DNA of 64,000 bases, from positions 63,115 to 127,114 of the forward strand of contig CAZWXF010000001.1 in NCBI GenBank assembly GCA_964638055.1, given 5' to 3'. The notes below the pieces were generated by a model, which saw only the letters and a list, made by a program, of their open reading frames with translations, was not told the origin of the DNA and ran no database searches. This DNA comes from an uncultured Bifidobacteriaceae bacterium (GTDB taxonomy: Bacteria; Actinomycetota; Actinomycetes; S36-B12; CAIYMF01). Positions 4,898 to 21,370 of this stretch are shown here, piece after piece (the stretch's first letter is position 1; the number at the start of each line of letters is the position of its first letter). Position numbers and translations under genes: made by a program.

Positions 4898-5968
4898 ATG
4901 GGCGACGGGTCTGCGCTGGCGCAGGAGCAGATGCTTGCCCGCGTCGACCACGTGCTCGGCGAGTTCCTCCAGGAGCAGGCCAAGCTGCTGGCCTCGATCT
5001 CCACCGAGCTGGAGCCCTTCGCGACGTGGTTGTCCGGGCTGCTGTCCGGGGGGAAGCGGCTGCGCCCGTCGTTCTGCATCTGGGGCTACGTCGCGGCGGG
5101 CGGGCACGACCTGCCGGCGGCGATGGGAGCGGCGGCCTCCCTGGAGCTGCTGCAGGCCGGTGCCCTGATCCACGACGATGTCATGGACGCCTCCGACGTC
5201 CGACGCGGGATGCCCGCGGCGCACCGCTCGTTCGCCGAGCATCACCGGGCGGCCGGGTGGACGGGGACCTCACAGCGATTCGGCGACGGCGTCGCGATCC
5301 TGCTCGGCGACATGGCCCTGTGCTGGGCCGACGAGCTGTTCGCCCGCTCCGGCTTCGACCCGGCGACGCTGGCCTCGGCGCGATGGGTCTTCGACATCAT
5401 GCGGACCGAGGTCATGGCCGGCCAGGTCCTCGACCTCGTGGAGCAGGCCAGGGGCGGGGGCTCCGCGCGACGAGCCCTGCACGTCGTGCGGTTCAAGTCG
5501 GCCAAGTACACGATCGAGCGCCCGCTGCATCTGGGCGCTGCGCTGGCCGGGGCCGATCGCCGGCTGCTGGCCGCCCTCTCCGACTACGGGCTTCCGCTGG
5601 GCGAGGCGTTCCAGCTGCGCGACGACATCCTGGGCGTCTTCGGCGACCCGGACACCACGGGCAAGCCGGCCGGCGACGACCTGCGTGAGGGCAAGCGCAC
5701 GCTGCTGCTGGCCGAGGCTGCCCAGCGTGCGGACCCGGAGCAGGCATCAGTCCTGGCTGCCGGCATCGGCGTGCGGGATCTCTCCGACGAACGGGTCGAG
5801 GAGCTTCGCTCCGTCATCATCGCCACGGGGGCCCGGGAGGAGGTCGAGTCGGTGATCACCGCTCGCACGCAGCAGGCGCTCACGGCGTTGGGCGCCATCG
5901 ACGTGCCCGACGACGCTCGGGATGCTCTGGCCGGCCTGGCACTGGCCGCTACGGAGCGTCGGCACTGA
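4898..5968 (+). CDS. idsA: Polyprenyl (geranylgeranyl) diphosphate synthase
   Basis: Both aspartate-rich motifs are present: LIHDDVMDASDVRRG and FQLRDDILGVFGD. I chose the ATG at 4898 (MGDGSALAQEQ). The longer track ORF from 4769 overlaps the divergent gene. Confidence 0.85.
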   Translation: MGDGSALAQEQMLARVDHVLGEFLQEQAKLLASISTELEPFATWLSGLLSGGKRLRPSFCIWGYVAAGGHDLPAAMGAAASLELLQAGALIHDDVMDASDVRRGMPAAHRSFAEHHRAAGWTGTSQRFGDGVAILLGDMALCWADELFARSGFDPATLASARWVFDIMRTEVMAGQVLDLVEQARGGGSARRALHVVRFKSAKYTIERPLHLGAALAGADRRLLAALSDYGLPLGEAFQLRDDILGVFGDPDTTGKPAGDDLREGKRTLLLAEAAQRADPEQASVLAAGIGVRDLSDERVEELRSVIIATGAREEVESVITARTQQALTALGAIDVPDDARDALAGLALAATERRH

Positions 5969-6840
5969 TGGGCCGGGACCTGCTCCGCGCGCTGGCCTCG
6001 GGTGAACCGCTGTTCAGCTTCGAGTTCTTCCCGCCCAGGACCGATGCCGGGGAGGTGCAGCTCTGGCAGGCGATCTCGGAGCTGGCACCGCTGCGGCCGA
6101 CGTTCGTCTCCGTCACCTACGGGGCCGGCGGGTCGACCCGTGACCGGACGGTGCGGATCACCAGCCGGATACAGGCCGAGACCGGGATGACTGCCGTCGC
6201 CCACCTGACCTGTGTGGGGGCCAGCGTCGAGGAGCTCCAGGCGGTGCTGGCTCGCTACCGGGAGGAGGAGATCGGCAACCTGCTGGTGATCCGCGGCGAT
6301 CCTCCGGGAGGGCCCGGGCAGCCGTGGACCTCCGTGCCGGGTGGCCTGGTCCACGCCGACGAGCTGGTCGCACTGGCCCGCCGGGATGCGGACTTCACCG
6401 TCGGGGTGGCCGCCTTCCCCGAGGGGCATCCCGAGTCGGTCGACCTCGACCAGGACGCCCGGATCCTGGCAGCCAAGCAGGAGGCCGGGGCGAGCTTCGC
6501 CGTCACCCAGTTCTTCTTCCAGGCGAAGGACTACTTCACGCTGGTCGAGCGGGCCCAGCGCCACGGCGTGACGATCCCGATCATCCCCGGGCTGATGCCG
6601 GTGACCAACGTGGGCCAGATCCAGCGGTTCGCCGTGCTCTCGGGAGCGGCGTTCCCGGCCGACCTGGCCGAGCGGTTCCAGAAGGTGGCCGCCGACCCCG
6701 CGGCTGTCGTCGATCTGGGCATCGACGTGGCCACGGCGCTCGGGCAGGAGCTCCTGGACGGGGGAGCGCCGGGGCTGCACTTCTACACCCTGAACCGCTC
6801 CACTGCCACGCGCAGGATCTACGGGCGGCTGTCGGGCTAG
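5968..6840 (+). CDS. metF: 5,10-methylenetetrahydrofolate reductase
   Basis: FSFEFFPPRT, VSVTYGAGGSTRDRT, AHLTC, LVIRGDPP and the fragment HFYTLN are present. The start ATG overlaps the idsA stop (TGATG). Confidence 0.9.
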   Translation: MGRDLLRALASGEPLFSFEFFPPRTDAGEVQLWQAISELAPLRPTFVSVTYGAGGSTRDRTVRITSRIQAETGMTAVAHLTCVGASVEELQAVLARYREEEIGNLLVIRGDPPGGPGQPWTSVPGGLVHADELVALARRDADFTVGVAAFPEGHPESVDLDQDARILAAKQEAGASFAVTQFFFQAKDYFTLVERAQRHGVTIPIIPGLMPVTNVGQIQRFAVLSGAAFPADLAERFQKVAADPAAVVDLGIDVATALGQELLDGGAPGLHFYTLNRSTATRRIYGRLSG

Positions 6841-8765: not shown

Positions 8766-10331
8766 TCAGGCCCTGCCGATGACCTGCGCGACGATCTCGG
8801 CGGAGAGCCCGACCATCGCCAGGCCCGGGCCCGGGTGGGTCGCGGCACCGACGAGGAAGAGGCCCGGGATCGCTGTGACGTTGCTTGGCCGGCGGCGCAG
8901 TGCATCGGCGGTCAGGGGCTCACCGAGCAGCGCCCCGCCGGGCATGCCGGTGGCCCGCTCCTGGTCTGCGGGGGTGTGGATCTCCCGGTGGCGGATCCGG
9001 CCTGAGAGGTCGGTGCCGCGATCGGCGAGGAGGCGCAGGACGCGGTCGGCCTGCTTCGTCGCGACGCCCGGGGCGTCCCAGTCCATCGTCGCGGGCTGGC
9101 GTCCGCCCGGGCTGTGCGGCGAGACGTCGACGTGGACCGTCCAGGCCTGCAGCCCCGCGGGATGCATCTGGGGGTCGGCGGGAACGTGGGCCCGGATGAC
9201 GGGGTCGGGATCGGGGGCGTCCGCGATCCTGGCGTGCCTCGACGACCGGCGCGCTGGGTCGACGGGAAGCCACACGTGCTCCCACGCTGGCCCCAGCGGT
9301 GGGGGTCCCCAGGTCGAGAGCATCAGGGTCAGCCGGCCGGGTGGCGCAGGCGGGCCGGTCCGGCGGAGGGCCGGGGCGGTGCGTCCCACCAGGCGGGCGG
9401 GGCGGGGTGCTGACCGGGGGGGCGGGTGCGGGGATGCCGTGCCCGGGGGCGCGGCATCGGGGGGGAGCAGTCCCCACACGGCGCTGGTCGAGGGAAGGTC
9501 GGCGACCACCACGTCAGCGGGCAGCCGGGAGGTCGTCGCGCCATCGGTGACCACGACACCGGTGACGCGGCCTGCCGCGAGCTCGATGCGCAGGGCCCGG
9601 GTGCCCAGGAGGACGCGGACCTCCCGCTGGCACACCCGGTCGTGCAGGGCCTGGGCGAGCCGGTGCATGCCGCCCCTGATGTGCCATGCGCCGAACGTCG
9701 CCGCCAGGTAGGGGCCCAGCACTGCGGCCGCCGTGGCGGACCGGGGATCCATCGGTAGGGGGAGTGACCGGTCGGCCATCACGGCACGGGCCCGGGGGTC
9801 GGTCAGGCTGCGCGTGAGGAGGTCCTGCAGGGTGGGTGGCCGGCGTCCGGGGTCGGTGGGGTTGAGCAGGGCGTCGAGCGCGGCAGCGGTCCGAGGAGCT
9901 GGGCCGGTCAGTCCACCGCGCACGAGTGCCCAGGTCGCGGCGGCGTGGGCCATCACCTCCTGCCATTCGGCGGCGCTGGCCGGCCCCAGGGCCTCGCCGA
10001 CGGCCGCTGCGGTCGCCCCCACTCCCGCTCCGGGCAGCTCCAGGTGCGTCCCGTCGGCGAAGTGGTAGTGAGCGGCCGGCTCCAGGGGCACGAGCTCCAC
10101 CTCGTCCTCCAGGGGGCCGCCGGTCTTGAGGAAGAGGTCGCGGTACACGGCGGGGAGGGTCAGGGCCGTTGGCCCCAGCTCGAAGGTGCACCCGTCCCGT
10201 TCGACGGCTCGGACCTGACCGCCCGGAGTCGTCGACGTCTCGACGAGAGTGACGTCGTGGCGCTTCACGGCCAGCCGTGCGGCGACGGCCATCCCACCCA
10301 GCCCGGCGCCGATGACGACGATCCTGGCCAT
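8766..10331 (-). CDS. Phytoene-desaturase-family (CrtI-like) FAD-dependent oxidoreductase
   Basis: The N-terminus has the dinucleotide-binding motif MARIVVIGAGLGGMAVAARL...LVETSTTPGG. The C-terminus has GLFLVGAATHPGPGL. There is an internal Pro/Arg-rich insertion. Confidence 0.75.
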   Translation of the reverse strand: MARIVVIGAGLGGMAVAARLAVKRHDVTLVETSTTPGGQVRAVERDGCTFELGPTALTLPAVYRDLFLKTGGPLEDEVELVPLEPAAHYHFADGTHLELPGAGVGATAAAVGEALGPASAAEWQEVMAHAAATWALVRGGLTGPAPRTAAALDALLNPTDPGRRPPTLQDLLTRSLTDPRARAVMADRSLPLPMDPRSATAAAVLGPYLAATFGAWHIRGGMHRLAQALHDRVCQREVRVLLGTRALRIELAAGRVTGVVVTDGATTSRLPADVVVADLPSTSAVWGLLPPDAAPPGTASPHPPPRSAPRPARLVGRTAPALRRTGPPAPPGRLTLMLSTWGPPPLGPAWEHVWLPVDPARRSSRHARIADAPDPDPVIRAHVPADPQMHPAGLQAWTVHVDVSPHSPGGRQPATMDWDAPGVATKQADRVLRLLADRGTDLSGRIRHREIHTPADQERATGMPGGALLGEPLTADALRRRPSNVTAIPGLFLVGAATHPGPGLAMVGLSAEIVAQVIGRA

Positions 10332-10385
10332 CTTCGGCGCCCTCCAGCGGTCGAGGGACGATCCACAGGGATCGGATCAGCGGGG

Positions 10386-10415
10386 TTGACGTCTGTCAGT
10401 GGCCCGGCGTAACCT
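10386..10415 (+). promoter_or_regulatory. DNA-damage promoter: TTGACG -35, a RecA-NDp (PafBC-type) element and a TAACCT -10
   Basis: TTGACG (10386-10391) is followed by an 18-nt spacer and TAACCT (10410-10415). Inside the spacer, cTGTCAGTG (10393-10401), 8 nt and TAACCT match the mycobacterial RecA-independent DNA-damage promoter consensus tTGTCRgtg-N8-TAnnnT. Confidence 0.65.
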
Positions 10416-10424
10416 ACGGATAGT

Positions 10425-10440
10425 TCGAACACCAGTTCGA
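10425..10440. promoter_or_regulatory. LexA SOS box
   Basis: TCGAAC-ACCA-GTTCGA matches the actinobacterial LexA consensus TCGAAC-N4-GTTCGA exactly. It lies about 10 nt downstream of the -10 hexamer, so it overlaps the expected TSS. Confidence 0.8.
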
Positions 10441-10597
10441 ACTCTGGTTCCGAGTCCCCGGCCCTTGGATCCAGGGCTGGGATCGGCCTGCGGTTGCGGG
10501 GGAAGCGCGACTGCGGGCCGATCCTGCCACACCGTCGTCTTCCCCGGCGATGCCGATCAGGACGCAGCCCGTCCGCGGACTCCGAGGAAGGACTCCC

Positions 10598-10903
10598 ATG
10601 AGCCGTACCTACGAAGAACCCATCGACGTCCGGCGCTCCGGCGCCATCCCACCGACGGACCGGCCGGTCCAGTTCCTCTGGCGTGGCCGGCTCTACGTGG
10701 TCAGGGACGTGATCTCGCACTGGATCGAGTCGGCCCCGTGGTGGGGCGGATCAAGGCGGGCCCTCGAGGGGGAGATACCAGCGCACGAACACGAGGTCTG
10801 GCGGGTGGAGGCCCAGGCCGGGCGCAGCGACAGCGCAGGCGTCTACGACCTGCGTCGGGACATGGCCGCGGACCGCTGGGTCCTGGCCCGGGCGATGGAC
10901 TGA
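10598..10903 (+). CDS. Small conserved protein, DUF6504-like
   Basis: I chose ATG 10598 because a GGAAGGA RBS precedes it; the track ORF starts at 10550. The sequence PVQFLWRGRLYVVRDVISHWIE..WW...EVWRVEA...GVYDL is what I recognise as the DUF6504 family that precedes SAV_6107-type HEPN genes. Confidence 0.7.
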   Translation: MSRTYEEPIDVRRSGAIPPTDRPVQFLWRGRLYVVRDVISHWIESAPWWGGSRRALEGEIPAHEHEVWRVEAQAGRSDSAGVYDLRRDMAADRWVLARAMD

Positions 10904-10910
10904 TGATGAG

Positions 10911-11333
10911 ATGAGCGTGACGTCGACCAACCCGCCCCTCTCGTACCAGACCCGCGATCTCCTCGGCTCGGCGGCTCGTGGCCTCCTGGAGGCCCACGCG
11001 AGCCCCGATCCGTCTCGGCGGTACGCCTTGGCGCACCTGTCCGCGTTGCGAGCAGCCGCCGCGGTGCTGGCGGCCCGAGCCCACCCGGGCAACCGGGCTC
11101 GTATCCGCAGCGTGTGGGCGGTGCTGCCGACGGTGGCCCCCCAGCTGCAGGAGTGGTCAGCCTTCTTCGCCGCCAACGCCGGCAAGCGGGCGGCCGCGGA
11201 TGCCGGCCTTCCTGTGGTGAGCCACCGCGAGGCCGACGACCTGATCCGCGACGCGGAGACGTTCCTGGCCGAGGTCGCATCCCTCATCGGACGCGACTTC
11301 CAGGTGACCCTCCCGGATCGGCGCGTGGGGTGA
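10911..11333 (+). CDS. SAV_6107-family HEPN-domain-like protein
   Basis: The protein looks helical, contains RYALAH (an Rx4H arrangement) and ends in a helix SHREADDLIRDAETFLAEV that is typical of HEPN domains. It starts 8 nt after the previous gene and ends 3 nt before the polymerase gene. Confidence 0.65.
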   Translation: MSVTSTNPPLSYQTRDLLGSAARGLLEAHASPDPSRRYALAHLSALRAAAAVLAARAHPGNRARIRSVWAVLPTVAPQLQEWSAFFAANAGKRAAADAGLPVVSHREADDLIRDAETFLAEVASLIGRDFQVTLPDRRVG

Positions 11334-11336
11334 CCC

Positions 11337-14300
11337 ATGGCTCGGTTCGTCCACCTGCATGTGGCCTCCGGGTACTCGATGCGCTACGGGACCGCCCGGC
11401 CGGAGGACCTTGTGGCGCAGGCTGCCGCGATGGGCCAGGAGGCGCTAGCCCTGACAGACCGGGACGGCGCCTACGGGGCCGTCGCCTTCGCCCTGGCGTG
11501 CCGTCAGGCCGGGATCGCACCGATCCTCGGCGCAGACCTGGCCACCGCCGCCCAGCTCTCGGCCGGCCGATCCACGGGACGCGCCGGAGGCGGACGCTCT
11601 GCGTCACCGCCGCGGACCCCGGTCCGGGGTGGGGCCTCGGTCGATCCGGGGCATCCCCGCCTGGTGCTGCTGGCCATCGGGGCGCCGGGGTGGGCTTCGC
11701 TCAGCAGGGTCATCTCGGCCGCACACCTCTCGGGCGAGCGCGGGCAGCCGGTCGTGTCCGGCGCGATGCTCGCCGAGCGCTCGCGGGGGCTGGCCGCCCT
11801 CATCGGCCCGGACTCCGACGTGGGCAGGGCGCTGGCCCGGCGCCGGCCGGACGAGGCCGCGCGGCTGCTCGCGGGGTGGCGTGAGGTGCTCGGGGCGGGC
11901 GTCCGGATCGAGGTGGTGTCCCACCGCAGCCAGGCTCGTGGGGATCGGCCCGCCTGGTCTGCCGCGTTCGCGGCCCGGATGGTGGACCTCGCCCGGCAGT
12001 GCGGCGTCCCGGCGGTGCTGACCAACGCGGTGCGTCACCTGACCCCGGAGCAGGCCCCCGTGGCGGACGTCCTGGACGCGATCCGGCGGCTGGTGCCGCT
12101 GGCCCCGCGGCACCTCGATCGGGCCAACGCCCAGGGCTATCTCAAGGATGCCGACTCGATGGCCGAGGTGGCCCGCGAGATCGCCGAGGCCGGGGGAGCG
12201 GGGGCGGGGTCGGCCAGCAGGCTGCTCGACGCGACGCTCGAGCTCGCCGACTCCTGTCGGATGGACCCGGCGCGGGACCTGGGCATCGGGTCGGTCCATG
12301 TCCCCGAGCTGGACGTGCTGTTCCCGCAGGGAGCCGCAGGACTCCCGCCGGGTCCCCTGCCGACGGCGACCGGAGCCCAGGCGCGGATGGCCGACCGCGT
12401 GCTGCGACACAGGTGCCAGGGCGCGCTCGATGCGCGCTTCGCAGCGCGCTGGGAGCACAGGGCGGCCACCGAGAGGCTCGAGGAGGAGCTGGCGACCATC
12501 GCCACGCTCGGGTACGGCGGGTACTTCCTTACCGTCGCGGAGGTGGTGGACATGATCCGTGGGATGGGGGTCCGGGTCGCCGCCCGCGGCTCCGGTGCAG
12601 GCAGCCTGGTGAACCACCTGCTCGGGATCTCGGTGGTCGACCCGCTGGAGCACGGGCTGATCATGGAGCGGTTCCTCTCCCCGCTGCGGCAGGCCCTGCC
12701 CGACGTGGACATCGACGTGGAGTCCGCCCGCCGCACCGAGATCTACACCCGGCTGCTCGCCCGGTTCGGTGGCCAGCGCTGCGTGGCGGTCTCGATGATG
12801 GACACCTACCGGGTCCGCCACGCGATCCGCGACGTGGGCGCTGCGCTCGGCCTGCCTCCCGGGGAGATCGACGCCTTCGCCAAGGCCTTCCCCCACATCC
12901 GGGCCCGGGACGCCCGGGCGGCGCTCGTGGAGCTGCCCGAGCTGCGCAGCTCCGGACTGGGCAAGCTCGCGGCGCAGGGTCGGTTGGAGGGATTCCTCAG
13001 CCTGGTCGAGGCCCTCGACGGGCTGCCCCGCCACGTCGCCCTGCACCCCTGCGGCGTGCTGCTCAGCGACGCCTCACTGCTGGACCGCACGCCCGTGGAG
13101 GCCAGCTGGATGGGCTTCCCGATGAGCCAGTTCGACAAGGACGCGGTCGAGGAGATGGGCTTCCTCAAGCTGGACGTCCTGGGCATCCGGATGCAGTCGG
13201 CAATGGCCCATGCCCTCGACGAGGTCGTCCGGCTCGGCGAGGAGCCGGTGTCCCTGGACGACCTTCCGCTGGACGATCCCGACACGTTCGCGATGATCCG
13301 CACGACCCATACCCTCGGCTGCTTCCAGATCGAGTCCCCCGGCCAGCGGGAGCTGATCGGGCGCTTCGCCCCGGAGACGTTCGCGGACCTGATCATCGAC
13401 ATCTCGCTGTTCCGGCCGGGGCCGGTCAAGTCCGACATGGTCAACCCCTTCCTGCGCGCCCGGCAGGGATGGTCCCCGGTGGACCTGCCCCATCCGGACC
13501 TGGGTCCCGTGCTCGACCAGACCCACGGCGTGGTGGTGTTCCACGAGCAGGTGATCGGGGTGATCGCCGTCATGAGCGGCTGCAGCCTGGCCGAGGGCGA
13601 CGAGCTGCGCCGCTCGATGGGATCGCCGGAGGGGCAGGCCCAGGTCCGGGCGTGGTTCTACCCACGGGTGCTGGCGCGGGGGTATCCCCTCGAGGTGGTC
13701 GACCGGGTCTGGGAGGTGCTGCGCTCCTTCGCGTCGTTCGGCTTCTGCAAGGCCCATGCCGCTGCGTTCGCGCTGCCCACGTACCAGTCGGCATGGCTCA
13801 AGGCTCACCATCCGGCCGCCTTCCTGGCCGGGGTGCTGACCCACGATCCCGGGATGTACCCGAAGCGCCTGATCCTCGATGATGCCCGCAACCTGGGCAT
13901 CACCATCCTCGGCGTGGACATCAACCGCTCGGGCCCGGTGTACCGGGTCGAGGAGTGGCCGACGCCGTCGGCTCGCCCGACGCTGCCGGGCCTGCCCGAT
14001 GGCAGCCACCACGGCATCCGGATGCCCCTGGCCGAGGTCAAGGGGATCTCCGCGGCCGAGGTGGCGCAGATCGTCGCAGGCCAGCCGTACAGCAGCCTCT
14101 CGGACTTCTGGCACCGGGCCGGAGTCACCGCCCCGGTCGTGGAGAACCTCGTCCTCATCGGCGGCTTCGACTCCGTCTACGGCATCGACCTCGCCAGCGG
14201 TGTCCGGGCGCGCGGCCAGACGACGCGACGGGACCTGCTGCTGGAGGTGGCCGACTGCGACCGGCTCTCCCGGGTCACCCGGGCGCGTCGGGCGGGCAGG

Positions 14301-15428
14301 GCCCGGGGGGCTCGGGCGGGCGGGGTGGGTTCGGTGGCCGGGCCGCAGGCGGGGAGCAGGAGCCCTCTCGGGGCGGACCTGGCAACAGCCTCCCGGGTCG
14401 GCGCGGCGTTCCGAGCCGGTGCTTCCTTCCGAGCCATGGCCCCCCCGACCGGCGGGATCGCCACGGCCGGCGCCGCCCTGGACGAGGAGGAGGTGCTCCG
14501 CAGCTGCGACGCGGTTCAGCCGGCTGGCCTGTCCGATCCCGCGCCACCCCCGCAGGCCTGGTGGGATCCGGCCCGCGCCGCTGCGGCGCAGTCCCAGGCC
14601 CCAGCCCCGGCGCTCGCCGGTCCGGTCCAGCTGGCCATGGACCTGCCCTCGCCGGGATCGGGGTGTGCCAGTGGGCTGCCCGAGATGACCACGGGGGAGA
14701 GCGTCCGCACGGAGCTGGGCATCCTGGGGATGGACGTGAGCCAGCACGTGCTGGACTTCTACGCCCCGATGCTCGCCGACATCGGGGTGGTGCCCGCCCG
14801 TGATCTCCTCGCCCAGCGCAGTCGGCAGGAGGTGTGGGTCGCCGGGGTGAAGGTGGCCACGCAGACCCCACCGATACGCAGCGGGCGCCGGGTGCTCTTC
14901 CTGACGGTCGACGACTCGACCGGTCCCGTGGACGCCACCTTCTTCGAGGACGCCCAGGATCCGTACGCCGCGACCGTCTTCGGTGGCTGGCTGCTGCTGG
15001 TCCGGGGCATCACCCGCCGCACCGGGCCCCGGGGGATATCCCTGCGGGCCACGGGCTGCTGGGATCTCGGCGTGGTCCACGGGATCTGGCAGGCCGGTGG
15101 TCGAGCCGGCGCCTGGGAGTACGTGAGCAGCTTCCCTCGGATCGAGGCTGACGGGCGGCCCACGAAGGTCGCCGACGTCCAGGTGGCGGGCGACCGGGAG
15201 ACGCCGCGGCAGCCGGGCCAGTCCGTGGTCGGCATCGGGCGCCATGCGTCAGGGGGCATGGGCCAGCGGCGACGGGTCCTGGTCCATGCCAGTGGGTTCA
15301 AGCAGTCGCCCTACGCGGACGTCAAGCCGGCAGGGGACGACCCGAGCGGCACCCCGCGGATACCCGAGCAGCCGACCCCCGCTCCCGGTCGGCTCTGGCA
15401 CGCCAGCCAGGGAAGCAGCGGCTGGTGA
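11337..15428 (+). CDS. dnaE2: Error-prone DNA polymerase III alpha-like subunit (DnaE2-like), with a large low-complexity insertion
   Basis: The N-terminus is a PHP domain (FVHLHVASGYSMRYG, LTDRDGAYG). The pol III alpha core is present (DVDIDVES, LKLDVLGIRMQS, GCFQIESPGQRE, FGFCKAHAAAFA). The C-terminus has an OB-fold region and ends in RLWHASQGSSGW. The window also contains a separate replicative dnaE. Confidence 0.85.
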   Translation: MARFVHLHVASGYSMRYGTARPEDLVAQAAAMGQEALALTDRDGAYGAVAFALACRQAGIAPILGADLATAAQLSAGRSTGRAGGGRSASPPRTPVRGGASVDPGHPRLVLLAIGAPGWASLSRVISAAHLSGERGQPVVSGAMLAERSRGLAALIGPDSDVGRALARRRPDEAARLLAGWREVLGAGVRIEVVSHRSQARGDRPAWSAAFAARMVDLARQCGVPAVLTNAVRHLTPEQAPVADVLDAIRRLVPLAPRHLDRANAQGYLKDADSMAEVAREIAEAGGAGAGSASRLLDATLELADSCRMDPARDLGIGSVHVPELDVLFPQGAAGLPPGPLPTATGAQARMADRVLRHRCQGALDARFAARWEHRAATERLEEELATIATLGYGGYFLTVAEVVDMIRGMGVRVAARGSGAGSLVNHLLGISVVDPLEHGLIMERFLSPLRQALPDVDIDVESARRTEIYTRLLARFGGQRCVAVSMMDTYRVRHAIRDVGAALGLPPGEIDAFAKAFPHIRARDARAALVELPELRSSGLGKLAAQGRLEGFLSLVEALDGLPRHVALHPCGVLLSDASLLDRTPVEASWMGFPMSQFDKDAVEEMGFLKLDVLGIRMQSAMAHALDEVVRLGEEPVSLDDLPLDDPDTFAMIRTTHTLGCFQIESPGQRELIGRFAPETFADLIIDISLFRPGPVKSDMVNPFLRARQGWSPVDLPHPDLGPVLDQTHGVVVFHEQVIGVIAVMSGCSLAEGDELRRSMGSPEGQAQVRAWFYPRVLARGYPLEVVDRVWEVLRSFASFGFCKAHAAAFALPTYQSAWLKAHHPAAFLAGVLTHDPGMYPKRLILDDARNLGITILGVDINRSGPVYRVEEWPTPSARPTLPGLPDGSHHGIRMPLAEVKGISAAEVAQIVAGQPYSSLSDFWHRAGVTAPVVENLVLIGGFDSVYGIDLASGVRARGQTTRRDLLLEVADCDRLSRVTRARRAGRARGARAGGVGSVAGPQAGSRSPLGADLATASRVGAAFRAGASFRAMAPPTGGIATAGAALDEEEVLRSCDAVQPAGLSDPAPPPQAWWDPARAAAAQSQAPAPALAGPVQLAMDLPSPGSGCASGLPEMTTGESVRTELGILGMDVSQHVLDFYAPMLADIGVVPARDLLAQRSRQEVWVAGVKVATQTPPIRSGRRVLFLTVDDSTGPVDATFFEDAQDPYAATVFGGWLLLVRGITRRTGPRGISLRATGCWDLGVVHGIWQAGGRAGAWEYVSSFPRIEADGRPTKVADVQVAGDRETPRQPGQSVVGIGRHASGGMGQRRRVLVHASGFKQSPYADVKPAGDDPSGTPRIPEQPTPAPGRLWHASQGSSGW

Positions 15429-15485
15429 TGGCGCGAGAGTGGCCAGCGCACCGGGTGACGGGCACAGGGCGCAGGGGACTGCAGG

Positions 15486-16769
15486 ATGGGGGGCACAGGA
15501 GGGTGGATGAGTCGAAGTCAGATCAACCGGCCGGCGGCTCCGGCGGGATTGGGCGACGACGATCGGGGCTGTCGCATCCTCCACGTGGACATGGACGCGT
15601 TCTACGCCTCGGTGGAGGTGGCGCGGCGCCCGGAGCTGCGTGGACGGCCGATGATCGTCGGGGGGATGGGCAGCCGGGGCGTCGTGCTGGCCGCCACCTA
15701 CGAGGCCCGTCGCCACGGCATCCACTCGGCGATGCCCATGAGTCGTGCCCTGCGCCTCGGACCGCCCGACCTGGTCGTCGTGCAGCCCGACCACGCGCGC
15801 TACGCCCAGGTGTCGGCTGCTGTCATGGAGGTGTTCACCTCGATCACGCCGTTCGTGGAGCCACTGAGCCTCGACGAGGCCTTCCTGGACGTGTCCGGCT
15901 GCCGGCTGACCCACGGCTCGCCGGGCGCGATAGCGGCGAGCATCCGCGATCAGGTCCACGACGAACAGGGCATCACCTGCTCGGTCGGGGTGGCGCCGAC
16001 GAAGTTCGTGGCCAAGCTGGCATCGACCCAGTGCAAGCCGGACGGCCTGCTGGTCGTGCCGGCCGACCAGGTGATCGCCTTCCTGCATCCCATGCCCGTG
16101 GGTGCCCTCTGGGGGGTGGGGGAGCGCACAGAGGAGCAGCTGCACCGCCTCGGCCTGCGCACGGTGGCCGACATCGCCCACACCCCGACCCAGACCCTCG
16201 TCCGCGCTCTGGGCCAGGCAGCGGGTCGCCATCTGGCGGATCTGGCCTGGGGTCGAGACGATCGCGACGTCACGCTGCATCAGCGGGAGCGCAGCGTGGG
16301 GGCCGAGGAGACCTTCGCGCGAGACGTCGACGATCCCGAGATCGTCCTGGCAGAGCTCCTGCGCCTCAGCGAGAAGGTGGGTGGCCGGATGCGACGGGCG
16401 GGGCTGTCGGGCAGCACGGTCACCATCAAGGTCCGGTTCGCCGACTTCAGCACGGTCACCCGATCCCGCCGCCTGCGTGCCTCGACCGCGGTGAGTCGGG
16501 AGATCTTCCATGGAGCTCGGGACCTCTACCTGGCCATGCACCTGGACCGGGCGCGGATACGACTGGTCGGCGTCCGGATGGAGGGGATCGCGCTGGAGGA
16601 GACCGTCGAGACGCAACTCATCCTGGGGGCGCCCGAGCGGGGCTGGCGGGAGGCCGAGCAGGCGGTGGACCGGGTGATCGCGAAGTTCGGCCGGGACACC
16701 GTCCGACATGCCCGCCTGATCCCCGAGAAGGGCCACGCGAGCGGCCATCCTGGGGGCACCCGACCATGA
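15486..16769 (+). CDS. dinB: DNA polymerase IV (Y-family), with catalytic residues present
   Basis: ILHVDMDAFYASVE, LSLDEAFLDVS and CSVGVAPTKFVAKLAS are present. The start may instead be the ATG at 15507 (MSRSQ). Confidence 0.9.
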   Translation: MGGTGGWMSRSQINRPAAPAGLGDDDRGCRILHVDMDAFYASVEVARRPELRGRPMIVGGMGSRGVVLAATYEARRHGIHSAMPMSRALRLGPPDLVVVQPDHARYAQVSAAVMEVFTSITPFVEPLSLDEAFLDVSGCRLTHGSPGAIAASIRDQVHDEQGITCSVGVAPTKFVAKLASTQCKPDGLLVVPADQVIAFLHPMPVGALWGVGERTEEQLHRLGLRTVADIAHTPTQTLVRALGQAAGRHLADLAWGRDDRDVTLHQRERSVGAEETFARDVDDPEIVLAELLRLSEKVGGRMRRAGLSGSTVTIKVRFADFSTVTRSRRLRASTAVSREIFHGARDLYLAMHLDRARIRLVGVRMEGIALEETVETQLILGAPERGWREAEQAVDRVIAKFGRDTVRHARLIPEKGHASGHPGGTRP

Positions 16770-16970
16770 CCGGCCGCAGACCGACCCCGGGCGGGGCCGC
16801 AACCCGAGCGCCCGCATGGCAAGATCAGCGCCGGTGTCCTCGCCTGCAGGGGCGTTCCCTCCCCCGGGCGGGCCCCACAGAGCGTGCCCCGAGTTCCCTT
16901 ATCGGGCAACCCTGCCTATCCTGAGCCTTAGAGGCACCGCGCACGACCGTGAGCCATGTAGGAGGTCACC

Positions 16971-17384
16971 GTGCCACTCTCTGAGCACGAGCAGCGCCTG
17001 CTTGAGCAGATGGAGCGTGCCCTCTACGCAGAGGACCCGAAGTTCGCCACGAGCATGCGCAATCCCCGGGCCGGTGCCGGGGATCGTCGACTTGTCGCCA
17101 TCGGGATCGTCGCGTTCCTCGGAGGCATGGGTCTGCTGGTTGCCGGGGTCGCGACGCGACTGGTTCCCGTGGGAGTCCTCGGCTTCCTGCTGATGCTCGG
17201 CGGCATCTGGCTTGCAGTGGCATCGTTCCGCCCCGGCGGGGCCGCGCCAGCGGCCGGTGCGGCGCCCCAGGGCCACCCGACACCCATCCGCGGGCACTCG
17301 AAGCCGCGACGTTCGTCCCGCGGCTCGATCTCCGAGCGCATGGAGGAGCGATGGCGGCATCGCCGGGAGCGCGGCGACCTCTGA
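16971..17384 (+). CDS. DUF3040-family membrane protein (Rv2169c-like)
   Basis: It begins with GTG preceded by an AGGAGG RBS. The N-terminus reads PLSEHEQRLLEQMERALYAEDPKF, followed by two TM helices. Confidence 0.8.
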   Translation: MPLSEHEQRLLEQMERALYAEDPKFATSMRNPRAGAGDRRLVAIGIVAFLGGMGLLVAGVATRLVPVGVLGFLLMLGGIWLAVASFRPGGAAPAAGAAPQGHPTPIRGHSKPRRSSRGSISERMEERWRHRRERGDL

Positions 17385-17387
17385 CCC

Positions 17388-17703
17388 AGTAGAGACCAGA
17401 GGCGCCGGCCGAGAGGCGCCGGTCGAGCCCAAACGCCGGTCGAGCCCGTCGAGACCAGCGCCCATCGAGCCCAGCGTCGAGCCCAGCGCCGGTCGAACCC
17501 AAACGCCGGTCGAGCCTGTCGAGACCAGCGCCCGTCGAGCCCAGCGCCGCTCGAGCCCAGCGTCGAGCCCAGCGCCGGTCGAGCCCAAACGCCGGTCGAG
17601 CCTGTCGAGACCAGCGCCCGTCGAGCCCAGCGCCGCCAGAGCCCGTCGAGCCCAGCGCCGGTCGAGCCCGTCGAGACCAGCGCCGGTCGAGCCCGTCGGG
17701 TCG
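17388..17703. repeat. Degenerate tandem array of the GTCGAGCCC/GTCGAGACC repeat family (locus A)
   Basis: GTCGAGCC[C/T], GTCGAGACC and AGCGCC(G) modules recur many times, with an 86-bp higher-order period between 17501 and 17587. An inverted copy GTCTCGACGGGCTCGACC lies at 17796-17813. Confidence 0.85.
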
Positions 17704-19763: not shown

Positions 19764-20201
19764 ATGTTCCTGGGGACGCACTTCCCCAAGCTGGATGAGA
19801 AGGGCCGTGTCATCCTGCCCGCGCGCTTCCGTGACGAGCTGGGCGAGGGACTCGTGCTGACCAAGGGTCAGGACCGATGCCTGGTCCTGTGGCCGCGTGG
19901 AGAGTTCGACTCCCATGCGGCGATGCTGCGATCGCAGGCACAGGCCAGCGCCCGCGTGCGCGCGATGACCCGGGTGTTCTTCTCGTCGGCCTTCGACGAG
20001 CTGCTCGACCGCCAGGGCAGGCTCACGATCCCGCCGGTGCTGCGGGAGTACGCGGGCCTGGAACGCGAGCTGACGGTCGTGGGCGCGGACACCCGCATCG
20101 AGATCTGGGACTCCGCGGCCTGGTCGCAGTATCTGGCGGACAACGAGGCCGCCTTCGCCGACCTCGACATGGATGCGGAAGGAGGGCCGCCCCTGGCCTG
20201 A
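19764..20201 (+). CDS. mraZ: Transcriptional regulator MraZ
   Basis: MFLGTHFPKLDEKGRVILPARFRDEL and a second SpoVT/AbrB-like half (DRQGRLTIPPVLREYAGL) are present. Confidence 0.95.
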   Translation: MFLGTHFPKLDEKGRVILPARFRDELGEGLVLTKGQDRCLVLWPRGEFDSHAAMLRSQAQASARVRAMTRVFFSSAFDELLDRQGRLTIPPVLREYAGLERELTVVGADTRIEIWDSAAWSQYLADNEAAFADLDMDAEGGPPLA

Positions 20202-20407
20202 GCCGCCTCTGACTGCGCGACATGTGATTCCCCTCCGCGCGGTTCGACGCCACTTCCCCGGTGCCGAACCCTCCGACGCCACTTCCCCGGTGCCGGAATC
20301 CGCGGCGGGGGGCCAGGTGGCACGCAGGGCCCGCACTCACCTGGAACGGGCCGACCCCGCCATCCGCCCACACCATCCGGCCCGCAGACCGACTGGGAGG
20401 ACCGTGG

Positions 20408-21370
20408 ATGACTGACTCCCACGTGCCGGTCATGCTCGAGGAGTGCCTGGCGATCCTCGGCCCGGCACTCGGGCGCCCCGGCGCCGCAGCCCTCGACGCC
20501 ACCCTGGGCCTGGGCGGCCACGCGGAGGCGATGCTGGAGGCACATCCGGGACTGCGCCTGCTCGGGCTTGACCGGGATCCCGCCGCACTGGCCTCGGCGA
20601 GCGCCCGGTTGGGCCGCTTCGGCGGGCGCGTCCGGACCTGGCGCGGCACCTACGACCAGATTCGTGAGGCGATGGCCGCCGTCGGGTGGACGAACCTCGA
20701 CGCGGTGCTCTTCGACCTGGGCGTGTCGTCCATGCAGCTGGATCGCGACGAGCGCGGCTTCGCCTACTCCCGGGATGCACCCCTGGACATGCGGATGGAT
20801 CCGACGAGCGGGCCGACCGCGGCGGACATCCTCAACACGTACTCGCAGACCGAGCTCGCCAGGGTCCTGCGCGACCTGGGGGAGGAGCGATTCGCCGTAC
20901 CCATCGCTCGTGCGGTGATCCGGGAGCGCCAGCGCGATCCCTTCACCAGCAGTGCCCGGTTGTCCGAGCTGATCCGGGAGGTCATCCCAGCACCCGCCCG
21001 CCGGACCGGCGGCAATCCGGCCAAGCGGACCTTCCAGGCCCTGCGGATGGAGGTCAACCGAGAGCTGGATCACCTCCGCCGTGCGATGCCCGGGGCGATC
21101 TCGGCCCTCGGTCCGGGCGGGCGGATGGTGGTCCTGAGCTATCACTCGGGCGAGGACCGCATCGTCAAGCAGGCGATCCGCCGGGCGACGGAGCCCGACG
21201 TGCCCCCGGGTCTGCCGGTGATCCCGGAGGAATTGCAGCCCATTGCGCGTGTTCTCACCCGCGGAGCGGCCAGGGCATCGGAGGATGAGGTCCAGCGCAA
21301 CCCTCGCGCGGCATCGGTCCGGCTTCGGGCGGTGGAGAAGGTCGACGCACGTGCTCGGGAGGTCCGATGA
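20408..21370 (+). CDS. rsmH: 16S rRNA (cytosine1402-N4)-methyltransferase
   Basis: HVPVMLEE, DATLGLGGHAE, FDLGVSSMQLD, SYHSGEDR and the fragment RLR are present. I trimmed the start to ATG 20408 (MTDSHVPV). Confidence 0.95.
   Translation: MTDSHVPVMLEECLAILGPALGRPGAAALDATLGLGGHAEAMLEAHPGLRLLGLDRDPAALASASARLGRFGGRVRTWRGTYDQIREAMAAVGWTNLDAVLFDLGVSSMQLDRDERGFAYSRDAPLDMRMDPTSGPTAADILNTYSQTELARVLRDLGEERFAVPIARAVIRERQRDPFTSSARLSELIREVIPAPARRTGGNPAKRTFQALRMEVNRELDHLRRAMPGAISALGPGGRMVVLSYHSGEDRIVKQAIRRATEPDVPPGLPVIPEELQPIARVLTRGAARASEDEVQRNPRAASVRLRAVEKVDARAREVR

Follow-up and report, generated by a model that had tools for sequence, protein, structure and literature searches.

A conserved HEPN_SAV_6107 gene between a standalone ImuB-C and DnaE2B in a putative SOS mutasome operon of an uncultured actinobacterium

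We analyzed two small adjacent genes in a window of 64,000 nucleotides (nt), that is, the whole 64-kb stretch of DNA considered here, from an uncultured Bifidobacteriaceae bacterium (GenBank assembly GCA_964638055.1, contig CAZWXF010000001.1, positions 63,115 to 127,114). The first open reading frame (ORF1, 10598-10903, + strand, 101 amino acids [aa]) belongs to the family DUF6504, and the second (ORF2, 10911-11333, + strand, 140 aa) to the family HEPN_SAV_6107. On balance, we lean toward the view that the two genes play accessory parts in an SOS mutasome and belong to a single damage-induced DUF6504-HEPN_SAV_6107-DnaE2B-PolY operon in which ORF2 would act as a non-toxic accessory or regulatory factor. 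A preliminary description of this DNA had proposed that the pair resembles a toxin/antitoxin module, with a non-enzymatic adaptor as its alternative; of these two options, our analysis favors the adaptor.

RESULTS

ORF1 and ORF2 precede two polymerase genes

The four genes are closely packed on the + strand. ORF1 and ORF2 are separated by a 7-nt spacer (10904-10910), in agreement with the sizes and distance first described, and the gene for a DnaE2B-type C-family DNA polymerase (11337-15428, + strand, 1363 aa) begins 3 nt after ORF2. It is followed by the gene for an active Y-family polymerase (Pol IV/PolY, 15486-16769, + strand), with the catalytic motifs in place and a C-terminal motif resembling the RecA N-terminus. 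For ORF1, the start was placed at the ATG at 10598, and not at that of the longer ORF from 10550, because all homologues start with MTRRY or MSRTY. Both ORFs are far beyond what chance would produce, given their third-position GC content of 0.86-0.88 and more than 1,000 homologues for each. When positions 10200-17600 were scanned by consensus, neither a terminator nor a sigma-70 consensus was found inside.

The 1363-aa polymerase carries the Pfam domains PHP, DNA_pol3_alpha, finger, HHH_6, and OB, as well as the catalytic motif PDVDIDVE. It was scored against the NCBIfam replicative DnaE model (619 versus a cut-off of 1002) and error-prone DnaE2 model (615 versus 939), and each of its two best NCBIfam models aligns to it in two separate stretches. 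Since the scores fall below the cut-offs, automatic annotation likely labels the gene only generically. Its product is 48% identical to the DnaE2B of Tessaracoccus lapidicaptus (E = 1e-97) over the first 399 residues, which are all that the published supplement prints. An identity as the replicative DnaE1 was considered and rejected on the basis of this likeness and of the LexA box described below. The Y-family polymerase matches NCBIfam NF003015 (399.7 bits versus a cut-off of 367), contains the catalytic motifs DMDAFYASVE and SLDEAF, and is 53% identical to T. lapidicaptus PolY (VEP41451, E = 3e-129), in an alignment that takes in the tail resembling the RecA N-terminus (WREAEQAVDRVIAKFGRDTV versus WTDAERAIDKAVLRFGPRAV).

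The control region suggests dual regulation by PafBC and LexA

Upstream of ORF1, the perfect palindrome TCGAACACCAGTTCGA (10425-10440, strand not applicable) is the sole perfect match in the 64-kb window to the actinobacterial LexA (SOS) box, TCGAAC-N4-GTTCGA. A degenerate copy of the box overlaps it at 10437-10452. Furthermore, a RecA-NDp-like (PafBC-type) promoter motif, TGTCAGTG-N8-TAACCT (10394-10415, + strand), begins 31 nt before the first base of the LexA box and is the single exact match to its consensus in the window. The consensus that it fits is TGTCRGTG-N8-TANNNT, which we take, from the mycobacterial literature, to be that of the RecA-NDp promoter. This promoter has been tied to the activator PafBC (PMC6789036). 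A leader of 157 nt separates the operator from ORF1, and positions 10200-11500 contain no Rfam match.

The same arrangement recurs elsewhere. Among 80 species-level genome loci, chosen by their encoding an ORF2 relative (hereafter HEPN loci), the LexA box 5′ of the cassette is perfect in 49 and has at most one mismatch in 66. In 30 of the 80, the LexA box is preceded by a RecA-NDp-like motif with at most one mismatch, which starts 22-33 nt (mostly 30-32 nt) ahead of it. Exact matches to the consensus number 11 in 1.02 Mb (both strands), and 8 of them lie at precisely this spot before the box. Loci with the motif in this place include L005, L018, L039, L046, L051, L055, L056, and L067.

The spacing of the two motifs suggests that the cassette is under dual control by the activator PafBC and the repressor LexA, and the whole region resembles a single transcription unit induced by damage, in which a promoter that depends on an activator is combined with a LexA operator. 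The perfect LexA box supports the damage inducibility of the polymerase operon; the DnaE gene 3 nt after ORF2 and the Pol IV gene behind it likewise bear out the earlier placement of the pair at the head of such an operon.

ORF1 matches DUF6504 and published ImuB-C proteins

Judged by its sequence, ORF1 is a standalone ImuB-C, which is a known kind of mutasome subunit. Residues 1-100 of its 101 match Pfam DUF6504 (PF20114) with 68.5 bits and an E-value of 6.9e-19, against a gathering cut-off of 24.2 bits, and BLASTP aligns it to the T. lapidicaptus ImuB-C protein VEP41449 with 45% identity (E = 3e-22). The published ImuB-C proteins VEP41449 and QBR94233 match DUF6504 themselves (1.2e-13 and 1.1e-16, respectively); an Arthrobacter ImuB-C (ALV45565) gives 0.0068, below the cut-off. 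The Pfam family DUF6504 is now tied in this way to the published ImuB-C subunit. By eye, DUF6504 and the C-termini of ImuB are alike in a WW pair, an R-x-[WF]-x-[VL] motif, and a terminal W-x-[LV]-x-x-x-x-D; their deeper homology rests on published analyses (PMC3765255, PMC12926913).

The AlphaFold2 model of ORF1 is all-beta, with six strands and a predicted local distance difference test (pLDDT) score of 82. A Foldseek search of the PDB with this model returned no match with E < 0.1, which agrees with the “novel fold” described for ImuB-C (PMC12926913). Searches of PDB sequences with the DUF6504 and HEPN_SAV_6107 profiles gave nothing meaningful, and NCBIfam holds no model for ORF1 or ORF2.

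AlphaFold models of homologues predict an interface between ImuB-C and the PHP domain of DnaE2 (PMC12926913), and by analogy with these published models ORF1 may dock to DnaE2B. In the HEPN loci, DUF6504 precedes DnaE2B in 41 cases, and only 2 loci carry it in front of PolY alone, with no DnaE2B. A role of DUF6504 directed at DnaE2 fits its near confinement to loci where DnaE2B follows.

ORF2 has a HEPN fold that lacks the canonical catalytic histidine

Residues 28-122 of ORF2 match Pfam HEPN_SAV_6107 (PF18726) with 113 bits and an E-value of 1e-32, against a gathering cut-off of 27.2 bits, as do all of its aligned relatives (18/18). The family names first given to both ORFs as likenesses are thus confirmed by Pfam matches above the cut-offs. 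The AlphaFold2 model of ORF2 is all-helical (mean pLDDT 85.7), with helices at 12-30, 34-56, (68-75), 77-97 (kinked), and 105-126. The predicted fold is the four-helix up-down bundle of HEPN domains, in which an insert separates helix 2 from helix 3. In Foldseek, its best two PDB matches are the HEPN proteins 2hsb (TM-scores 0.68/0.74) and 1wol (0.57/0.64), followed by the sacsin HEPN domain and HEPN toxins, so that the helical HEPN domain suspected earlier holds at the level of the predicted fold. The family shows no sequence-level similarity to any PDB chain.

The Rx4H arrangement RYALAH (R37-H42, DNA 11019-11036) had drawn attention as a possible catalytic motif. Conservation was assessed in 151 sequences, namely the window protein and 150 representatives, each from a cluster formed at 50% identity. 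R37 is kept in 142 of them (94%) and H42 in 140 (93%), which confirms that both residues are conserved across homologues; R47, R56, W69, E81, W82, R93, R106, D109, D110, and R113 are kept at 89-99%. The motif lies in the first turns of helix 2. In canonical HEPN proteins, the Rx4-6H closes helix 3 or opens the loop leading to helix 4, and its arginine is followed by a polar residue (N, D, or H) (PMC3710099). At this site, the ORF2 family reads K92-R93-A-A-A-[ED]-A-G99 (K92-R93-AAAEAG in the window protein): R93 is present in 150/151 representatives, residue 94 is alanine instead of the usual N/D/H, and a histidine at positions 98-100 occurs in 0/151. The Rx4-6H at the helix 3 end that marks catalytic HEPN RNases is absent from the family, and R37-x4-H42 in helix 2 does not occupy the catalytic position. 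The up-down topology of the model probably places R37 and H42 together with R93 and R106-R113 at one end of the bundle.

Substitutions of H42 are informative. It is tyrosine in 9/151 representatives, and glutamine, tyrosine, or leucine in the loci L045, L075, L046, and L133; every other invariant residue is kept in both sets. In the first three of these loci, where it is glutamine or tyrosine, the cassette and its LexA box are intact. Such replacements are more in keeping with a binding or structural role of H42 than with one as a general acid/base.

A survey of HEPN proteins places the SAV_6107 family in the MNT-associated “HEPN-M” clade, enters it in its table as having no Rx4-6H motif, and gives no genomic context for it (PMC3710099). 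Using PADLOC, we found that the single ORF2 sequence produces a weak match only (0.014), and that 16 of 18 family members match the HEPN model PDC-M05B, with a best E-value of 1.4e-7. PDC-M05B is the HEPN half of a nucleotidyltransferase (NTase)-HEPN pair, a toxin-antitoxin-like candidate for a defense system. We read the match as common ancestry and not as membership in a defense system, because the NTase partner is missing: no NTase gene is adjacent to the HEPN gene in any locus examined. The long members of the family, checked for DUF6504 fusions and other domains, have N-terminal extensions of low complexity only. Altogether, these comparisons indicate that ORF2 is probably a domesticated, non-catalytic HEPN factor.

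An enzymatic role could still be retained if ORF2 were an SOS-induced RNase with an alternative site, composed of R93 and H42/R37, that cleaves mRNA or RNA at stalled forks (R-loops, primers) and so links translesion synthesis with arrested growth or the removal of RNA, with restraint by ORF1 as an optional feature. We regard this as unlikely. Precedents for it are the HEPN nuclease RloC, which is activated by DNA damage, and the Escherichia coli operon dinB-yafN-yafO-yafP, in which SOS-regulated Pol IV is joined by a toxin-antitoxin pair. The HEPN fold itself and the kinship to the toxin-type HEPN of NTase-HEPN modules speak for such an enzyme, as does the 89-99% conservation of R37, H42, R93, R106, and R113, which, from the helix topology, would lie at the HEPN active-site end of the bundle (PMC3710099). 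In addition, toxicity has been described for some HEPN proteins without the motif, and AF0298 (2hsb), the best structural match, has been proposed to use an alternative histidine (PMC3710099). AF0298-type HEPN proteins and the ORF2 family both keep the canonical arginine, lose the canonical histidine, and have a conserved histidine elsewhere (PMC3710099); however, AF0298 takes its alternative histidine from the helix 2-3 insert, whereas that of ORF2 is in helix 2 and is replaceable by tyrosine or glutamine. Against an RNase, moreover, stand the loss of the canonical histidine in all representatives, the alanine after R93, the intact cassettes of L045, L046, and L075 despite a replaced H42, and the curated listing of the family as motif-less (PMC3710099). 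Nor is there an antitoxin-like partner, given that ORF1 is an ImuB-C and that about 35 of the 80 HEPN loci have no DUF6504, and the vertical, syntenic, polymerase-like evolution of the gene set out in the next section is unlike that of toxin genes.

After the last helix, ORF2 (residues 131-140, 11301-11333) and its relatives carry a Q-x-x-[LIMV]-[PFLG] motif, mostly Q-x-x-L-P, in a C-terminal tail modeled with low confidence. It is present in 35 of 148 representatives, whereas shuffling the tails gives about 11, and it is not kept family-wide. Its likeness to clamp-binding peptides is loose.

The HEPN gene accompanies three different polymerase sets

Among the 80 HEPN loci, the largest class has the order DUF6504-HEPN-DnaE2B, usually then PolY (41/80). 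The remainder are HEPN-DnaE2B with the upstream sequence lost at a contig end (2/80), HEPN-DnaE2B classed as lacking DUF6504 (2/80, one of which, L069, has a weak overlapping DUF6504 match), DUF6504-HEPN-PolY (2/80), HEPN-PolY (15/80), HEPN-imuA′-imuB-dnaE2 (4/80), loci with no polymerase within 8 kb (10/80), and truncated contigs (4/80). DUF6504 is thus present in about 43-45 of the 80. When the selection is reversed, the pairing is almost complete: of 72 informative metagenomic loci chosen for their DUF6504, 70 have HEPN immediately downstream, and in these 70 it stands between ImuB-C and DnaE2B, with gaps of a few nt or overlaps. The projected gap between HEPN and DnaE has a median of 25 nt over 97 loci, and some of the genes overlap. 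One of the rare DUF6504 loci that lack HEPN, L121, has nothing recognizable in the next 1.5 kb.

In the four imuA′ loci (L034, 7426-15185, from Dactylosporangium; L036; L037; L076), HEPN is the first gene of a LexA-boxed, canonical imuA′-imuB-dnaE2 operon. The NCBIfam scores in these loci are 169.5 bits for ImuA′ (cut-off 65) and 1497 for canonical DnaE2 (cut-off 939). DUF6504 is absent from these operons because ImuB has a C-terminal domain of its own. The loci with no nearby polymerase comprise six from Streptomyces, with no LexA box, and two each from Jiangella and Actinomycetospora, with a box.

The chromosomal site is shared across many actinobacterial orders. On one side lie idsA, metF, a flavin adenine dinucleotide (FAD) oxidoreductase gene, and a YbaK-like gene, and on the other DUF3040 and then the mraZ-rsmH division (dcw) cluster. 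The immediate upstream neighbor of HEPN is DUF6504 or the divergent YbaK-like gene, and the downstream neighbor is DnaE2B, PolY, ImuA′, or a methyltransferase. HEPN is present in one copy in the 64-kb window, and it has diverged about as much as the polymerase (mean identity 57% versus 60% for DnaE; r = 0.67-0.73). The pattern of loci is that expected of an accessory gene for SOS translesion synthesis that is inherited vertically, and does not resemble a mobile toxin-antitoxin pair.

In many lineages, a gene for a class I S-adenosylmethionine (SAM)-dependent methyltransferase stands between DnaE2B and PolY (L081, 13134-14000; also L009, L010, L012, L018, L028, L040, L053, L055, L061, L064, and L068); the window has none. 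In Streptomyces locus L008 (8494-9282), it directly follows HEPN. This methyltransferase may be a further member of the cassette.

The constancy of the site also invites the reading that ORF2 is a syntenic passenger whose function has no relation to the polymerases and perhaps involves the methyltransferase and DUF3040, with polymerase genes repeatedly inserted alongside it and a shared transcript that would be mere coincidence. We give this little credence. The shared neighborhood in all orders, the existence of ImuB-C-DnaE2B variants that lack HEPN, and the Streptomyces arrangement HEPN-methyltransferase-DUF3040, with neither polymerase nor LexA box, would all be expected of a passenger. Conversely, where HEPN is the first gene, a LexA box lies directly 5′ of it (13/15 HEPN-PolY and 4/4 imuA′ loci), even when no polymerase is near, as in Jiangella and Actinomycetospora. 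The tight position of HEPN between ImuB-C and DnaE2B in 70 of 72 loci, and the convergence of three different polymerase sets on a HEPN neighbor, likewise argue against a passenger.

DISCUSSION

A model for the roles of ORF1 and ORF2

In the model that we prefer, with both genes as accessory genes of the mutasome, a PafBC-type promoter would drive, and LexA would repress, an operon for an actinobacterial error-prone mutasome. ORF1 would dock on the PHP domain of DnaE2B, replacing the C-terminal domain of ImuB. ORF2 would descend from the NTase-associated (toxin-type) HEPN clade, in a lineage that lost both the NTase partner and the canonical catalytic histidine, and, produced together with the polymerases, would assist or regulate SOS translesion synthesis without being toxic. 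Beyond the observed family identities, operon anatomy, operator, residue conservation, and co-occurrence, we infer what ORF2 might bind: its working surface could be the arginine-rich end of the bundle (R37, Y38, H42, R93, R106, D109, D110, and R113), which would bind nucleic acid, a nucleotide, or a shared protein partner (the Y-family fold, RecA, or the clamp).

Several points weigh against this model. In profile comparisons using hhalign, DUF6504 aligned to the C-termini of four actinobacterial (Micromonosporaceae) ImuB proteins with a probability of 0.6-0.7%, from very thin profiles; adding two standalone ImuB-C proteins from Chloroflexi left it likewise at 0.6-0.7%, with an insert in DUF6504 distorting the alignment. 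The published complex models scored well when built with no HEPN protein (PMC12926913), and a contact of HEPN with any polymerase subunit is hypothetical. The conserved charged residues and the Arg/His pair could form an alternative RNase center of the AF0298 type (PMC3710099), to which we assign the lower probability. HEPN is common but not indispensable, as T. lapidicaptus and L142 have ImuB-C directly beside DnaE2B with no HEPN between them; in L142 (2894-6954), DUF6504 abuts DnaE2B, as in the published T. lapidicaptus locus. Finally, in the six Streptomyces loci (L008, L014, L033, L054, L058, and L065), which occupy the same syntenic site, HEPN has neither a LexA box nor a polymerase within 8 kb and is followed by a methyltransferase and DUF3040. 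A DnaE2B-DinB2 pair has been reported elsewhere in the Streptomyces genome.

A last alternative, that ORF2 is a non-catalytic, MtlR-like RNA-binding brake that binds the transcript of its own operon and limits translation of the mutagenic polymerases, strikes us as very improbable: such a role has been proposed for inactive HEPN domains (PMC3710099), and the basic character of the domain (median pI 9.5), the 157-nt leader, and the promoter-proximal position in tight coupling to the polymerase gene accord with it, but no Rfam match or conserved RNA element was detected in 10200-11500, and the variety of downstream genes (DnaE2B, PolY, imuA′, methyltransferase) makes one common RNA target unlikely.

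A broader extension of the mutasome model, which we put forward tentatively and with more doubt than belief, is that HEPN_SAV_6107 is an unrecognized, near-universal component of actinobacterial SOS mutasomes, that is, a domesticated toxin-type HEPN serving DnaE2B-PolY, PolY alone, and ImuA′-ImuB-DnaE2 alike. Its Arg/His-rich end could then dock a partner that these sets share (the Y-family fold, RecA/ImuA′, the clamp, or the Pol-beta-like palm of DnaE2) or act on RNA at damaged forks. Docking on the palm could echo the old contact between HEPN and nucleotidyltransferase.

Relation to known systems

The closest relative of the window's operon is the putative DnaE2B-PolY-[ImuB-C]-RecA mutasome (Timinskas & Venclovas 2019, PMC6511836; NAR 2026, PMC12926913), which comes from the same phylum and has homologous DnaE2B, PolY, and ImuB-C. 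This module occurs in Actinobacteria only, and a “good tetramer complex modeled” is reported in the supplement (PMC12926913). HEPN is not mentioned among the four parts of the published module, whereas here it stands between ImuB-C and DnaE2B. Specifically, the word “HEPN” is absent from the main text of PMC6511836, PMC12926913, and the paper that defined ImuB-C, as well as from the supplements of PMC12926913. The Janibacter indicus proteins used for the published model carry the accessions APH01277 (ImuB-C), APH01279 (DnaE2B), and APH01281 (PolY). Judging from the accession numbering only, the two skipped numbers would fall where HEPN and the class I methyltransferase sit in our loci.

With the mycobacterial mutasome ImuA′-ImuB-DnaE2, the window shares an SOS-induced error-prone C-family polymerase, a Y-family partner, and an ImuB-C module. 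Unlike that system, the window has neither ImuA′ nor an inactive ImuB; its ImuB-C is a separate protein, its Y-family polymerase is catalytically intact, and its C-family polymerase is of the DnaE2B type. The same HEPN family nevertheless heads the imuA′-imuB-dnaE2 operons of Dactylosporangium and of a related Micromonosporaceae strain.

MNT-HEPN toxin-antitoxin modules, including PADLOC PDC-M05 (NTase plus HEPN), resemble ORF2 in the HEPN fold and in the PDC-M05B matches. Unlike them, ORF2 has no NTase partner, has lost the canonical histidine, and is chromosomal, syntenic, and single-copy in the window, with its gene placed under a LexA box and embedded in polymerase operons. A constant adjacent NTase or antitoxin gene and a patchy, mobile, multi-copy distribution, which characterize such modules, were not found, with copies counted in the 64-kb window. 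The toxin/antitoxin proposal finds no support for several reasons: ORF1 is an ImuB-C; the pairing is one-sided (70/72 from the side of DUF6504 versus about 43-45/80 from the side of HEPN); the R-x4-H lies in helix 2; H42 is replaceable; there is no NTase; and the gene keeps to a single syntenic site.

The E. coli operon dinB-yafN-yafO-yafP is similar in having small genes together with a LexA-controlled Y-family polymerase, and it is the precedent for the toxin/antitoxin idea. However, YafO and YafN have unrelated folds and form an interdependent toxin-antitoxin pair, whereas the HEPN gene is preceded in the window by one for a polymerase-docking module and also occurs in loci that lack DUF6504.

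HEPN_SAV_6107 is a known but uncharacterized family, and we found no earlier account, in the papers searched, of its near-constant, LexA-linked tie to three error-prone polymerase sets. In our loci, no other non-polymerase gene accompanies SOS translesion operons across actinobacterial orders as constantly as the HEPN gene does. If the proposed role is correct, the published four-part module is incomplete, the methyltransferase often encoded between DnaE2B and PolY might belong to it as well, and a toxin fold has been domesticated into DNA-damage tolerance. At a time when the assembly and restraint of mutasomes are still being worked out, this provides a candidate accessory factor that can be tested in cultured Janibacter, Vallicoccus, Modestobacter, Marmoricola, and Dactylosporangium.

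Features flanking the cassette in the window

One flank of the cassette in the window carries metF and the gene for an FAD-dependent oxidoreductase (5968-6840 and, on the - strand, 8766-10331). The other carries DUF3040 (16971-17384) and mraZ-rsmH (19764-21370), the start of the cell-division cluster. About 30 nt past the stop codon of DUF3040, a GC-rich tandem repeat array begins (17416-17694), in which no ORF stands out as coding and whose units of about 16, 25, 70, and 86 nt are built on GTCGAGCCCAGCGCCG.

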